Source: an uncultured Chitinophagaceae bacterium
GTDB lineage: Bacteria; Bacteroidota; Bacteroidia; Chitinophagales; Chitinophagaceae
Assembly (NCBI GenBank): GCA_903870685.1
Contig: CAIQDX010000013.1
Coordinates: forward strand, 1,350-65,349
DNA: 64,000 nt
Direction: 5' to 3'
Positions within the stretch are counted from its first letter, which is position 1. Each line of letters begins with the position of its first letter. The notes under the pieces are model-generated. The model saw nothing but the letters and a program-made list of their open reading frames with translations. It made no database searches and had not been told where the DNA came from. Below, piece after piece: positions 34,292-38,284 of the stretch. The translations under genes and the position numbers were made by a program.

Positions 34292-35431
34292 ATGCGCATT
34301 GGAATTGTTTGCTATCCTACGTTTGGTGGCAGTGGTGTTTTGGCTACAGAATTAGGTAAAGCATTGGCCGACGAAGGTCATCAGGTTCATTTTATTACTT
34401 ATCAGCAACCGGTTCGGTTAAATGTTTTTAATACAAATATTTTTTATCACGAAGTTCGAGTACCTACTTATCCTTTATTCGATTATCCTCCATACGAAAT
34501 TGCATTGGCAAGTACCATGGTGGATGTGATCATGAATTATGATCTGGATCTGTTGCATGTGCATTATGCTATTCCGCATGCATCGGCTGCGTACATGGCA
34601 AAACAAATTGTAAAAAGTAAGAATGGAAGAAACATTCCTGTAATTACAACATTACATGGAACCGATATTACTTTGGTTGGAAAAGATAAAACATACGAAC
34701 CTGTTGTAACTTTTTCAATCAATGAAAGCGATGCCATTACTGCTGTTTCAGAAAATTTAAAACAGGTAACATATAAAAGTTTCCCTATCACTAAAGAGAT
34801 CGAAGTGATTCCGAACTTTGTTGATGTGTCACGTTTTAATAAAAAACCTTTTGATGCTTTTAAAAAAGTAATTGCACATGAAGGTGAAAAAATATTAGTG
34901 CATGCTTCCAACTTCAGAAAGATAAAACGTGTTGATGATGTGATAAAAATTTTTGCAGCAGTACGAAAACAAATGCCTGCAAAATTATTAATGGTGGGTG
35001 ATGGACCCGAAAGACCTGCTACCGAGGAATTGGCAAGAGAATTAAATGTTATTGATGATATCCGTTTTGTAGGTAAGCAGGAACAGATGGAAGAAATATT
35101 AGCCGTGAGCGATTTATTTTTATTGCCAAGCGAATATGAAAGTTTTGGATTGGCGGCTTTAGAAGCAATGGCAGCAAGGGTTGTAGTGATCAGCACCAAT
35201 GCCGGTGGTTTACCCGAAATAATTATTCATGGCGAAACAGGTTTTATGGCAAATGTTGGTGATGTTGATGCAATGAGTGAATTTGCGATTTCAATTTTAA
35301 AGAATGAATCTCATTTAGAACAAATGAAACAAGCTGCTTTTGAACGTGCCTGCACATTCGATATTCAATATATCATTCCTCAGTACGAAAAATTATACAG
35401 TCGCTTTTGCAGAATGGAAATAATAAAATAA
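34292..35431 (+). CDS. bshA: N-acetyl-alpha-D-glucosaminyl L-malate synthase (bacillithiol biosynthesis GT4)
   Basis: MRIGIVCYPTFGGSGVLATELGKALADEGHQVHFITY N-terminus and the GT4 E-x7-E region (SEYESFGLAALEAMA). Confidence 0.8.
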   Translation: MRIGIVCYPTFGGSGVLATELGKALADEGHQVHFITYQQPVRLNVFNTNIFYHEVRVPTYPLFDYPPYEIALASTMVDVIMNYDLDLLHVHYAIPHASAAYMAKQIVKSKNGRNIPVITTLHGTDITLVGKDKTYEPVVTFSINESDAITAVSENLKQVTYKSFPITKEIEVIPNFVDVSRFNKKPFDAFKKVIAHEGEKILVHASNFRKIKRVDDVIKIFAAVRKQMPAKLLMVGDGPERPATEELARELNVIDDIRFVGKQEQMEEILAVSDLFLLPSEYESFGLAALEAMAARVVVISTNAGGLPEIIIHGETGFMANVGDVDAMSEFAISILKNESHLEQMKQAAFERACTFDIQYIIPQYEKLYSRFCRMEIIK

Positions 35432-35438
35432 TTGAAAA

Positions 35439-35939
35439 TTAAAACCAACCGTCAGTTGATGGTGGTTCGGATGAAATAGATTTTCTTACTTCAATTGCCG
35501 GAATTGAATTTGCTGCAGGTGAAACAACTTTTCTTTGTTGATGCATTTTTTCCATTCCCGGAATTTTTGGTTTTTCATCCAAAGGATTGTAGCGATTTTT
35601 AGTCATAGAACCTTCGATCACTGCACCTTCTTCTATTTCTAAAGTTGTTGCAATGATGCCGCCTTTGATCACAGCATTATTACAAATAACTGCTTTTGTT
35701 TTGCATTCGATATTACCTTCCACTCTTCCGTAAACAATTAAATGAGCCGCAGAAATATCACCATTAATTGTTGCTTCTTCACCAATCACAAGTTTTGCTT
35801 CAACATTAATATTTCCTGAAACATTGCCATCAATTCGTCCAGATATTTTTGATTCAATATCTCCAAGTATCAAGATTCCCTTTGGCAACAGAAAGCTGTC
35901 GGTTGGCTTATTTCCAATTAACTGATTTAGTTTAAACAC
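35439..35939 (-). CDS. Bactofilin (polymer-forming cytoskeletal protein) with a disordered C-terminal tail
   Basis: Beta-helical repeats G.I.G.V.G.I throughout (ISGRIDGNVSGNINVEAKLVIGEEATINGDISAAHLIVYGRVEGNI...). GTG start 21 nt after the upstream stop. Confidence 0.85.
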   Translation of the reverse strand: MFKLNQLIGNKPTDSFLLPKGILILGDIESKISGRIDGNVSGNINVEAKLVIGEEATINGDISAAHLIVYGRVEGNIECKTKAVICNNAVIKGGIIATTLEIEEGAVIEGSMTKNRYNPLDEKPKIPGMEKMHQQRKVVSPAANSIPAIEVRKSISSEPPSTDGWF

Positions 35940-35960
35940 ATCAAATGTTAATTAATGAAT

Positions 35961-36998
35961 TTATCTTTTTTCATTTTCAAAAGTTGATACAATGGTACTC
36001 GCATTACCAAGATCAATGCCAATGGCACTTTCGGACTTATCGTCAGAAATTCTAAGTGAATTATATAAATAACCAATGCTTGCTAACTTTTCAGCATCAG
36101 GCGCAACTTCTACTGCCATCACATCTTTAAATTCTTCCTGAAATGCATCTTGCAAATCCTGATAATATGCACCACCACCTAATAAAAATATTTTTTCGCA
36201 GTTTTCGAAATCACTATCAGTAAAATATCTTTTGAATAATGGCGAAATGATTTCTTTATAATATTGCGTCAATATCTCTTTACGTAATTGTTTAAGATCG
36301 ATATTTTTTCTGTTAATGAAGATGAAACCTTTTACAAATGCATCATCTAACTGATGTTCATTCTTCATTTCTAAATAATATTTCTTATTCAGTTCACGAG
36401 TAAGATTATTAATTGCATAACGCAATCCATGAGAACTGAAAACGGTACGTTGTACCAATCCATCGCTGGTTGCCATTGCACCTTCAATAGTTCCAAAACC
36501 AATACTGATGGCAATAAAACTTTTTGGTTGTAACGGACCTAACATTTTTTTCAAACCAATGATACCGCCAACAATTTCCGGGATTACATCAAATTTTTCA
36601 ATATCAAATAATGCTTTTTTAACAGCACCTCTGTTATGAAAAGTTTGTGTATCATATTCGACCAAGAAATTTTTTCTACTCAAAAAACGCTCAGCTGCTT
36701 CTTTGTAAACATTATAAGTTGAAAAAGGAAATCCAACAGTAATATACATAGGTTGCTGCATCGTTTCTGCAATTGTAATTAGAGCAGCTTTAAATAATAT
36801 TTCATAATCTTCTTCTTGTGGAGATGCATTAACAACTTTATTCGGGCTAACACCACCTCTTTTGGCTAAACTTCCTGCCAAATACCAGGTGTTTTCATTT
36901 TTTATTTTTAATCCGTTTAATAGGTCTCTAGATGAATTTTCTGTGTTACCAAATGCTGATTCAAATACACTCGGGAAACTGATTGTTGATACTTTCAT
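35961..36998 (-). CDS. Actin-like (ParM/Alp-type ASKHA) protein, apparently circularly permuted
   Basis: Phosphate-2-like FIAISIGFGTIEG, adenosine motif FLLGGGAYY, ParM-like IPEIVGG and ASIGYLY. The phosphate-1 hairpin AIGIDLGNASTIVS is at the C-terminus and absent from the N-terminus. Confidence 0.7.
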   Translation of the reverse strand: MKVSTISFPSVFESAFGNTENSSRDLLNGLKIKNENTWYLAGSLAKRGGVSPNKVVNASPQEEDYEILFKAALITIAETMQQPMYITVGFPFSTYNVYKEAAERFLSRKNFLVEYDTQTFHNRGAVKKALFDIEKFDVIPEIVGGIIGLKKMLGPLQPKSFIAISIGFGTIEGAMATSDGLVQRTVFSSHGLRYAINNLTRELNKKYYLEMKNEHQLDDAFVKGFIFINRKNIDLKQLRKEILTQYYKEIISPLFKRYFTDSDFENCEKIFLLGGGAYYQDLQDAFQEEFKDVMAVEVAPDAEKLASIGYLYNSLRISDDKSESAIGIDLGNASTIVSTFENEKR

Positions 36999-37087
36999 TG
37001 CTTGATAGATTGAATAGAGCGAAAATAATTAAATTTTCGGCAAAAAAATATTTTGATTCATTTTTGTAATATGTGGCAATATTAAGT

Positions 37088-38284
37088 TCAGAAATCCGCA
37101 TCTGCAACACTTTCCAAAACTATTCGGCAAATATCTTTCAATTCATTTTCGGTGGTTATCAATGGTGGCGCAATTCTCATACAATTCGCAGCAAATAAAA
37201 ACCAGTCTGTGATCAACCCTTTTGATATACATTCTTGAATGACTGCATGATTTGTTTTGAATGAATCAAATTCAATCGCCATCCATAATCCTGCCGAACG
37301 AATTGCTTTTATTTTTTTATGATGAATATTATCTATTAAAAACTGCTCTTTATTTTTTACAGATGAAATAAAGTTTCCATCTAACAAAACTTCAAACGCT
37401 GCTTTTCCTGCTGCACAAGAAACCGGATGACCACCAAATGTGGTAATGTGCCCTAACACAGGATCATGCGTTAACAGATTCATTAATTTTTTATCAGCAA
37501 TAAAAGCACCCAATGGCATTCCGCCACCTAATGCTTTTCCTAATAATAAAATATCAGGAACAATATTAAATTGTTCGAATGCCCATAATGTTCCCGTTCT
37601 TCCAAAGCCTGCCTGAATTTCATCTAAAATTAATATTGCACCATGTTCATCACATTTTTTGCGAATGGTTTGCAACCATTCTTTTTTTGGTTGAATGATT
37701 CCTGCTTCGGCTTGAATTGTTTCTGCAATTACACAACAAGTATTATTATCAATGGCATTAATTGCTTCATCACTTCCATAATTAAAATGAAAAACATCCG
37801 GCAATAAAGGACGAAAAGCATTTCGCCAATATTCATCACCCATCACACTTAATGCACCTTGTGTGCTGCCGTGATAAGATTTATTAAATGAGATTATTTT
37901 TGAACGATTGGTAAAACGTTTTGCCAACTTCATCGCACCTTCAGTTGCTTCTGTTCCGCTGTTAGTGAAATAAACACAGTTGAGTGATGAAGGAAGGTTA
38001 TCGGTCAACAGTTTTGCATAACTGATTTGTGGCTGTTCAATAAATTCTCCATACACAATCAAATGCATGTATTGCGCAGTTTGAGTTTGAACTGCCTTCA
38101 CAACTTTAGGATTGCTATGACCAATATTAGCAACACTGAATCCCGAAATAGCATCAATATATTTTTTTCCATCTGCATCATACAAATAAATTCCTTCAGC
38201 CTTCACCATTTCAATACCGATTGGCTCTGGCGATGTTTGTGCAACATGGTTAAGAAAAAGTTGTTTGTTAGAAATTCCACTCAT
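37088..38284 (-). CDS. Class III (acetylornithine/ornithine-type) aminotransferase
   Basis: FTNSGTEATEGAMKLA, ILDEIQAGFGRTG, and a PLP-lysine context (LLLGKALGGG). Confidence 0.85.
   Translation of the reverse strand: MSGISNKQLFLNHVAQTSPEPIGIEMVKAEGIYLYDADGKKYIDAISGFSVANIGHSNPKVVKAVQTQTAQYMHLIVYGEFIEQPQISYAKLLTDNLPSSLNCVYFTNSGTEATEGAMKLAKRFTNRSKIISFNKSYHGSTQGALSVMGDEYWRNAFRPLLPDVFHFNYGSDEAINAIDNNTCCVIAETIQAEAGIIQPKKEWLQTIRKKCDEHGAILILDEIQAGFGRTGTLWAFEQFNIVPDILLLGKALGGGMPLGAFIADKKLMNLLTHDPVLGHITTFGGHPVSCAAGKAAFEVLLDGNFISSVKNKEQFLIDNIHHKKIKAIRSAGLWMAIEFDSFKTNHAVIQECISKGLITDWFLFAANCMRIAPPLITTENELKDICRIVLESVADADF

Follow-up and report, generated by a model that had tools for sequence, protein, structure and literature searches.

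An actin-like gene of an uncultured Chitinophagaceae bacterium very probably specifies an actin-fold ATPase of the ParM/Alp type that is a genuine circular permutant, fixed in evolution. The gene (35961-36998, minus strand, stop codon included) codes for 345 residues and lies on contig CAIQDX010000013.1 of GenBank assembly GCA_903870685.1, in a stretch of 64,000 nucleotides that we call the window. Positions are counted from the first letter of the window, and all features of this gene and of its partner gene are on the minus strand. Its identity is based on the open reading frame, a match to the Pfam family ALP_N, structural matches obtained with Foldseek and 229 homologues.

To our knowledge, descriptions of the cytoskeletal ATPases with an actin fold (actin, MreB, ParM, FtsA, MamK and others) all give one order of strands, in which the phosphate-1 hairpin comes first. 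In canonical proteins subdomain IA runs beta1-beta2-beta3-(IB)-alpha1-beta4-alpha2-beta5, followed by domain II and a C-terminal helix, with the two chain ends in subdomain IA. The window protein has no phosphate-1 hairpin at its N-terminus, and its C-terminal end reads AIGIDLGNASTIVSTF.

A phosphate-1 hairpin at the C-terminus

The chain begins at strand beta3 of subdomain IA. The segment VSTISFPSVFE (aa 3-13, 36960-36992), which by reading of the sequence contains FPSVF (aa 8-12), corresponds to YIFPSVVG in canonical relatives; it is a strand in the AlphaFold2 model (residues 3-9), its alignment to the canonical template starts at position 23, and P9 and S10 are conserved. It is followed by YLAGSLA (aa 39-45, read from the sequence) and by strand beta4, YITVGFPFSTY (aa 85-95, 36714-36746; ITVGFPFSTY being aa 86-95), modelled as a strand at residues 84-90 and containing I86, a partner in the strongest coevolving pair. 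VIPEIVGG (aa 138-145, 36564-36587) has the invariant Glu141 at the catalytic Glu/Gln position of actin-like ATPases. The phosphate-2 motif FIAISIGFGTIEG (aa 161-173, 36480-36518) has Ser165 for the canonical Asp, and the adenosine motif FLLGGGAYY (aa 271-279, 36162-36188) aligns to the canonical ISGGGA. ASIGYLY (aa 306-312) is again a reading of the sequence.

After the last helix (residues 305-317 in the model) the linker SDDKSES (aa 318-324, 36027-36047), whose sequence is variable in the family, bridges the former C-terminal helix and the former N-terminus, where a strand starts at residue 325. The relocated beta1-beta2 hairpin AIGIDLGNASTIVSTFENEKR then fills aa 325-345 (35964-36026, with the motif at 35985-36026). 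It is recognised by an invariant G-x-D-x-G-N, by the structure prediction, by alignment to ALP_N positions 1-16 and by direct coupling analysis (DCA). The motifs identified thus depart from the Bork-Sander-Valencia order of phosphate-1, connect-1, phosphate-2, adenosine and connect-2: the E141 segment, phosphate-2 and adenosine motifs come in succession and phosphate-1 is last (aa 325-338). A preliminary description of the gene had listed these motifs, and all its residue numbers and nucleotide positions are reproduced from the reading frame 35961-36998.

That description had also held that there is no space upstream for an N-terminal hairpin, and the sequence bears this out. An in-frame TAA is read directly at 37029-37031, 10 codons 5' of the ATG, which excludes an N-terminal extension. 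Further, the 5' neighbour, a class-III aminotransferase gene, ends at 37088, an intergenic distance of 89 nt. Together, the stop codon and the gene end leave no room for the hairpin in the actin-like frame. A frameshift, a mis-assembly or a truncation could in principle make a normal ParM seem to lack its N-terminus, and the preliminary description had called for the assembly to be re-checked. However, besides the stop codon and the closeness of the previous gene, an identical layout is found in 210 distinct homologues and in at least 80 species genomes. Since homologues keep the same layout a frameshift is ruled out, and the probability that the gene is an artefact or a pseudogene is next to nil.

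Conservation of the permuted layout

The homologue search covered 5.8 billion proteins and returned the 229 homologues at 99% query coverage. Among the matches listed, 120 in number, lengths are 339-385 aa and query coverage 99-100%. Their public names are "ParM/StbA family protein" or "hypothetical", and the named sources are Chitinophaga, Arachidicoccus, Flavisolibacter, Ferruginibacter, Foetidibacter, Compostibacter and others. The preliminary description had suggested checking whether homologues keep the hairpin at the C-terminus and always lack it at the N-terminus. This is what a regular-expression survey of the 120 closest homologues finds: the motif is C-terminal in 120 and N-terminal in none.

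In an alignment of 25 sequences all proteins start with M-x3-(T/S)-x-x-FPSVFE and finish with G-x-D-x-G-N-x-(S/T) and a short variable tail. Full-length divergent homologues, likewise, carry GxDxGN only at the C-terminus. Among 210 distinct sequences the hairpin residues are conserved at 99.5% (D329), 100% (G331) and 99.5% (N332), while E141 is present in all 210 and G274-G276 in about 100%.

A genome scan, with one genome per species, matched 113 species, and 80 loci were fetched. All 80 are from Chitinophagaceae or Chitinophagales. The homologue loci are chromosomal (some of the fetched ones lie on multi-megabase contigs, and contigs reach 8 Mb) and are found among housekeeping genes that vary by genus. 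The closest relatives, with 92% identity, come from freshwater Chitinophagaceae metagenome-assembled genomes (MAGs).

The relatives returned by an exhaustive profile search, which covered 1.84 billion cluster representatives, fall into three tiers. The first (P0121-P0137) consists of full-length divergent proteins, 33-45% identical, with termini as in the window protein. The second (P0185, P0187, P0189-P0191, P0193, P0202, P0203, P0210, P0223, P0226, P0238, P0240, P0252 and P0253) is only about 21-26% identical. These proteins end in (I/V)D(I/V/F)GN, also have the phosphate-2 Ser and, like the window protein, have an ALP_N match that does not start before position 17 or 18 of the profile. The third tier contains canonical relatives (P0200, P0204, P0205, P0207, P0214, P0216, P0218, P0228, P0229 and others), which have an N-terminal IG(L/I)D(L/V)G(Y/F)G, YIFPSVVG about 20 residues in and the phosphate-2 Asp, and which end directly after the (G/A)Y motif. 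They align to the query with an offset of +17 to +21 residues.

Two first-tier proteins are extended. P0122 (locus L092, 6001-7608) continues for about 190 Glu/Lys-rich residues beyond the C-terminal hairpin, and P0129 has about 110 residues ahead of beta3. Both new termini therefore tolerate additions, as expected if they are located in a surface loop.

Profile alignments across the junction

The ALP_N profile (PF17989) aligns aa 4-141 of the native protein to positions 17-145 of 148, with 41.1 bits. This is above the gathering threshold of 26.3 bits and places the window protein in the family. A match that begins at position 17 means that exactly hairpin positions 1-16 are missing at the N-terminus, in agreement with the absence noted from the sequence. 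When residues 322-345 are placed before residue 1, the score becomes 49.7 bits and the match extends over positions 1-145. In a tandem duplicate of the protein the top-scoring stretch is residues 327-486, which crosses the C-to-N junction and also covers positions 1-145.

The same pattern is seen when 38 permuted proteins are compared with 21 canonical relatives using hhalign. The native set aligns with E = 7.5e-35 (query 7-319, template 23-334) and the rejoined set with E = 1.2e-37 (query 2-338, template 4-334). In the rejoined alignment AIGIDLGNASTIVS is paired with IIGLDLGYGFSKVT.

For sequences in the PDB, a search with the single protein gives no match, and the native close-family profile gives none at E <= 1. 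A broader rejoined profile matches pCBH ParM (1e-7), Dh-cParM1, CorM, Hsc70/Hsp70 and MreB, and the CorM chain is matched from position 5, hairpin included. No NCBIfam family scores above its cut-off for the window protein. MreB was considered as an identity and rejected, as the scores are 12.5 bits against 27 for Pfam MreB_Mbl and 10.6 bits against 293 for the NCBIfam MreB family.

The rejoined ALP_N and hhalign alignments, the offset of 17-21 residues, the modelled hairpin and the coevolution described below all support what the preliminary description had suggested, a circular permutation of a ParM/Alp-type protein.

Predicted structure

AlphaFold2, run on the family alignment, gives a model with a predicted local distance difference test (pLDDT) of 82.4 and a predicted TM-score (pTM) of 0.85. 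It has strands at residues 3-9 (beta3), 84-90 (beta4) and 126-140 (which includes beta5), the last helix at 305-317 and then two strands, 325-330 and 334-340. By blocks, the pLDDT is 93 for residues 321-330 and 83 for 331-340; at these values the hairpin is unlike a loose tail. A second model was made for P0333, a plasmid-type member from a Silvanigrellaceae genome that is 24% identical. Its pLDDT is 92.3 and its pTM 0.87, and it too ends in a hairpin (310-315 and 319-323), with the last helix (287-309) joined directly to beta1. The two distant members, from branches that are 22% identical, thus share a confident C-terminal beta-hairpin, as had been anticipated.

The sole poorly predicted part of the window protein is aa 16-60 (36819-36953), the region of subdomain IB, with a pLDDT of 50-63. 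Its sequence is well conserved (GNTENS..DLLNGLKIK..WY.VGNLA), and the equivalent region is confident in the plasmid-type member.

In Foldseek searches of both models against the PDB, whose alignments are sequential only and not permutation-aware, the first ranks are held by Ta0583, pCBH ParM, Dh-cParM1, CorM, Alp12, and the ParMs of B. thuringiensis, pSK41 and R1. MreB, Hsp70 and actin follow at lower ranks (from about 18-23 onward), and AlfA and MamK are also found after the ParM-type proteins. The probability is 1.00 for Ta0583, the ParMs, CorM, MreB, Hsp70 and actin, so the protein has the two-lobed actin/ASKHA fold.

Coevolution of the hairpin with subdomain IA

Mean-field DCA was performed on 235 permuted sequences (about 76 effective). 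Of roughly 58,000 pairs, the first in rank is I86 in beta4 (YITVGFP) with I328 in beta1 of the hairpin, with z = 13.2. The residue combinations at these two positions compensate in size (V/I, L/L, I/I and I/L). The chance that the top pair falls in beta1 x beta4 is about 7e-4 (42 of ~58,000 pairs). Other couplings connect the hairpin to beta5 and helix alpha1: D137-A325 (rank 6), A71-I336 (rank 11) and K70-A333 (rank 20). As an internal control, V88-V138 between beta4 and beta5 has rank 8. The RNase-H-like sheet of subdomain IA has the strand order 3-2-1-4-5, where beta1 pairs with beta4, and this pairing is matched exactly by the top pair.

The coupling bears on two other ways to read the C-terminal segment. 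First, GIDLGN might be a conserved tail peptide outside the fold, for instance for binding a partner or the membrane, in an actin fold that has no beta1-beta2. The motif is indeed short, and its placement in the fold is deduced indirectly. However, the RNase-H-like subdomain IA would be incomplete without its central strand beta1, profile alignments cross the junction and gain score, the hairpin is modelled in two distant members, and I328-I86 is the top coupling. We give the tail peptide very little credence.

Second, the hairpin could be donated to a neighbouring protomer, in which case oligomerisation would complete each ATP site. A tether at one end permits such swapping in principle, DCA is blind to the difference between cis and trans contacts, and some members have long linkers, with up to 34 residues between Y310 and G327. 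Against this, the monomer models place the hairpin confidently, the linker in the window protein has only 7 residues, and in the plasmid-type member the helix at 287-309 runs directly into beta1 (310-315), with no slack to reach another subunit. It is also textbook knowledge that both termini of canonical actin folds are in subdomain IA. Completion in trans is therefore, in our judgement, very unlikely, and the short or absent linkers together with the confident monomer models suggest that the hairpin would insert in cis.

The nucleotide site

In the alignments D329-x-G331-N332 takes the place of phosphate-1, and in phosphate-2 a Ser stands for the first Asp and a Glu (E172) for the last. The nucleotide site is accordingly predicted to be formed by D329, G331 and N332 of the hairpin, Glu141, the phosphate-2 loop S165-x-G-F-G-T-x-E172 and the adenosine loop G274-G276. 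At the position of E141 a Gln is found in the nearest canonical relatives and in pCBH ParM.

The canonical phosphate-2 pattern D-x-G-x-x-T-x-D is absent from the window protein. Canonical relatives have D-x-G-F-x-T-T-D, while the permuted clade has an invariant Ser, as the preliminary description had indicated for this one protein: among the 210 sequences S165 is conserved at 99%, G169 at 100%, T170 at 99% and E172 at 99%. The family profile ranks an engineered D199S mutant of bovine Hsc70 (1QQM) above most wild-type Hsp70 entries. This high score comes from the mutation, which gives D199S the same phosphate-2 Ser as the permuted clade (codon of Ser165 at 36504-36506).

A bactofilin gene as putative partner

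The gene directly downstream, 21 nt 3' of the actin-like gene, encodes a bactofilin of 166 aa (35439-35939; PF04519 at aa 18-112, 85.2 bits with a cut-off of 27.9). The two genes are probably co-transcribed. In each of the 80 genome loci a bactofilin gene comes directly 3' of the one for the actin-like protein (75 detected by tblastn and 5 by inspection), and the genes that flank the pair vary between genera. A scan for sigma-70 promoters and terminators stays at chance level; Bacteroidota promoters differ from the sigma-70 consensus, which makes such a scan uninformative there.

The two open reading frames are in the same frame (35939-36998), and between them the sequence reads TAA ATT CAT TAA TTA ACA TTT GAT, followed by a GTG start. 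The spacer therefore holds two stop codons within 12 nt, which is probably meaningless; a spacing of about 20 nt is retained in the closest MAGs.

The bactofilin ends in STDGWF (35442-35459), with a terminal Trp-Phe (WF). This ending is present in all 78 partners detected by tblastn (75 genome loci and 3 loci from a protein look-up), and of the remaining 5 partners 4 end in WF and 1 in WI. The WF end is usually preceded by an acidic stretch. It is found in none of the 16 more distant bactofilins retrieved, 3 of which have source names, from three other phyla.

One Sediminibacterium sp. MAG (Z5-A1_MAG_6) has two actin-bactofilin pairs (L066, 4001-5505, and L081, 4001-5446). Their actins are 66% and 60% identical to the window protein, and one bactofilin ends in WF, the other in WI. 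Two diverged complete pairs in one genome indicate that the pair was duplicated as a unit.

In a high-GC divergent member (L093, 1716-4415) an M23-peptidase fragment is 5' of the actin gene and a bactofilin lies 1.2 kb further upstream. This arrangement may point to cell-wall remodelling or be due to chance. We give it little weight as support for a cell-wall link, as the bactofilin has no WF end and the peptidase frame is only a C-terminal fragment.

Plasmid-type relatives

Permuted actins of the second tier are found in two-gene cassettes, with a small open reading frame 3' of the actin-like gene (loci L090, 8001-9297; L091, 8001-9364; L095, 8001-9311; L004 and L009). The small frame follows at 0-38 nt and codes for 89, 91 and 106 aa where it is complete; in two loci it runs off the contig end. 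Neighbouring genes encode DnaB and a phage-type integrase, PolB and a 5'-3' exonuclease, or a TrfA replication initiator, and one member of the tier comes from a Silvanigrellaceae (Bdellovibrionota) MAG. Judged by gene content, these loci look like plasmid or phage partition modules of the ParM/ParR type that are built on a permuted actin.

A tblastn search with one of these proteins (P0187) against the PLSDB plasmids and the INPHARED phages gives no match, so the assignment to mobile elements is based on the neighbouring genes in metagenomic contigs. Further, the plasmid collection holds no full-length match to the window protein, and in the window no parC-like iteron array is present in 35300-37200, where only two-copy repeats at chance level occur.

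Proposed origin and function

In the permuted chain, which begins at beta3, the 7-residue linker joins the old C-terminal helix to the terminal beta1-beta2, and the new termini lie in the former beta2-beta3 loop. The following scheme would account for these observations. The hairpin would insert in cis and complete the nucleotide site. By analogy with its closest structural relatives, we infer that the permuted protein may bind nucleotide and form filaments.

The ancestral setting was probably a plasmid cassette of the ParM/ParR type. In Chitinophagaceae the chromosomal copy has a bactofilin gene where ParMR cassettes carry the one for ParR, and the two proteins may work together. The acidic-x-x-Trp-Phe tail would dock on the actin-like protein, like the C-terminal peptide of ParR on ParM; the Foldseek matches include 4A62, a ParM with such a ParR peptide bound. 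The locus would then encode a cytoskeletal module of two polymers, now chromosomal but with its origin in plasmid partition. For this part of the scheme, a polymer with the bactofilin as partner, we see about even chances.

Several points count against the scheme. The DCA draws on about 76 effective sequences, makes no correction for phylogeny and does not tell cis contacts from trans contacts. Where the hairpin sits in the sheet is deduced from pLDDT, secondary structure, homology and coevolution and should be read as a model. Hsc70 D199 mutants are reported to hydrolyse ATP much more slowly (the Wilbanks/McKay mutant studies), and with an invariant Ser at the corresponding phosphate-2 position the permuted family may have slow or altered hydrolysis or be a nucleotide binder only. 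For the ancestry in ParMR, the small frames of the second-tier cassettes have no Pfam match, which means that the label ParR-like is taken only from position and size. For the partner, no bactofilin gene adjoins the divergent chromosomal members P0124, P0130 and P0122, and the pairing is thus lineage-specific.

The protein could also be an ASKHA ATPase without a cytoskeletal role: a non-polymerising enzyme, chaperone or regulator that, for instance, remodels or caps bactofilin polymers. The Ser at phosphate-2 and the poorly predicted region of subdomain IB (aa 16-60) would fit such a protein. However, the top Foldseek ranks in both searches are filament-forming actin-like proteins, the protein is a member of ALP_N, and its plasmid-type relatives are in two-gene cassettes similar to ParM/ParR beside replication genes. 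We regard a non-cytoskeletal function as rather unlikely.

A more elaborate proposal is a composite cytoskeleton, where a nucleotide-independent bactofilin scaffold would replace ParR as anchor and nucleator of the ParM-derived filament and the WF tail would occupy the ParR-binding groove. Here the permutation itself would be functional: with a tether at just one end, the phosphate-1 strands could come free or pass from protomer to protomer, and completion of the site would be coupled to assembly or to bactofilin binding. Although we consider this unlikely, it would, if true, represent a new regulatory principle for actin-like polymers.

The permutation in itself has several consequences. A natural and widespread permutant shows that the actin fold tolerates a cut in the beta2-beta3 loop and a fusion of the old termini, and it provides a natural template for engineering split or permuted nucleotide sensors of the ParM type. 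It also explains why these proteins are annotated as only partial ParM/StbA matches. As far as literature searches show, no bactofilin had been tied genetically to an actin-like protein before this strict pairing with a specialised one, and the hypothesis that its WF tail binds the actin is clear and testable. After CorMR, the locus points to a second, independent example of plasmid partition machinery that became a cytoskeletal module of the chromosome.

Full-text literature searches, whose coverage of subscription journals is limited, found neither a permuted actin or ASKHA protein nor an actin-bactofilin operon described, and an earlier mention is possible. The chromosomal ParM paper, the CorMR preprint, the BeeR paper, the survey of membrane binding in bactofilins and the preprint on detection of circular permutations contain none.

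Comparison with known systems

The window protein shares with ParM/Alp proteins (PF17989; Ta0583 2FSJ, pCBH ParM 6IZR/6IXW, Dh-cParM1 8X1I, ParM R1 1MWM) the two-lobed actin fold (Foldseek E = 4e-17, TM 0.68), FPS(V/L) at beta3, GxP in beta4, the adenosine GGGA and a C-terminal (G/A)Y. The differences are that phosphate-1 is first in those proteins but last here, that the phosphate-2 Asp is a Ser here, that the catalytic Gln of the nearest canonical relatives is a Glu, and that D-x-G is followed by an invariant Asn.

The nearest match in the plasmid collection is PRTRC system protein D from plasmids of Burkholderiaceae (Paraburkholderia, Ralstonia), an ALP_N family member with 23-24% identity over aa 30-278. 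It is the actin-like protein of ParB-related/ThiF-related cassettes. In contrast to the window protein, protein D has an N-terminal IDVGYGNTK hairpin, matches ALP_N over profile positions 1-148 and has the phosphate-2 Asp.

As in the type II partition systems ParMRC (ParM, the adaptor ParR and the centromere parC), two genes form a cassette, and the one for the actin-like protein is followed immediately by that for a small partner. In addition, the divergent permuted members adjoin genes for TrfA, DnaB, integrase or PolB, as on plasmids and phages. The window locus itself is different: its partner is a bactofilin and not ParR, it has no iterons or other parC-like array, and it is chromosomal and spread through a bacterial family.

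Bactofilins next to a dedicated, presumed partner are known from BacA-LmdC of Hyphomonas (eLife 2024, PMC10945521) and from CcmA-Csd of Helicobacter, and the beta-helical core (PF04519) is the same. Unlike in those modules, the partner here is an actin-like ATPase, and the bactofilin has a lineage-specific Trp-Phe end. Bactofilin termini were surveyed in eLife in 2025; that paper brings up actin only in its general background, and neither ParM nor Chitinophagaceae.

In its presumed history the window locus is similar to CorMR of Anabaena, a chromosomal ParMR that has been repurposed for cell shape (bioRxiv 10.1101/2025.06.27.661541; structure 9RMI). The words bactofilin, permut and Bacteroid are absent from that preprint. 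CorM ranks high in both the structural and the profile searches, and both proteins would be chromosomal descendants of a ParM-type protein with a presumed role other than segregation. They differ in that the profile alignment of CorM fits a canonical N-terminal hairpin, while in the Chitinophagaceae protein the hairpin closes the chain.

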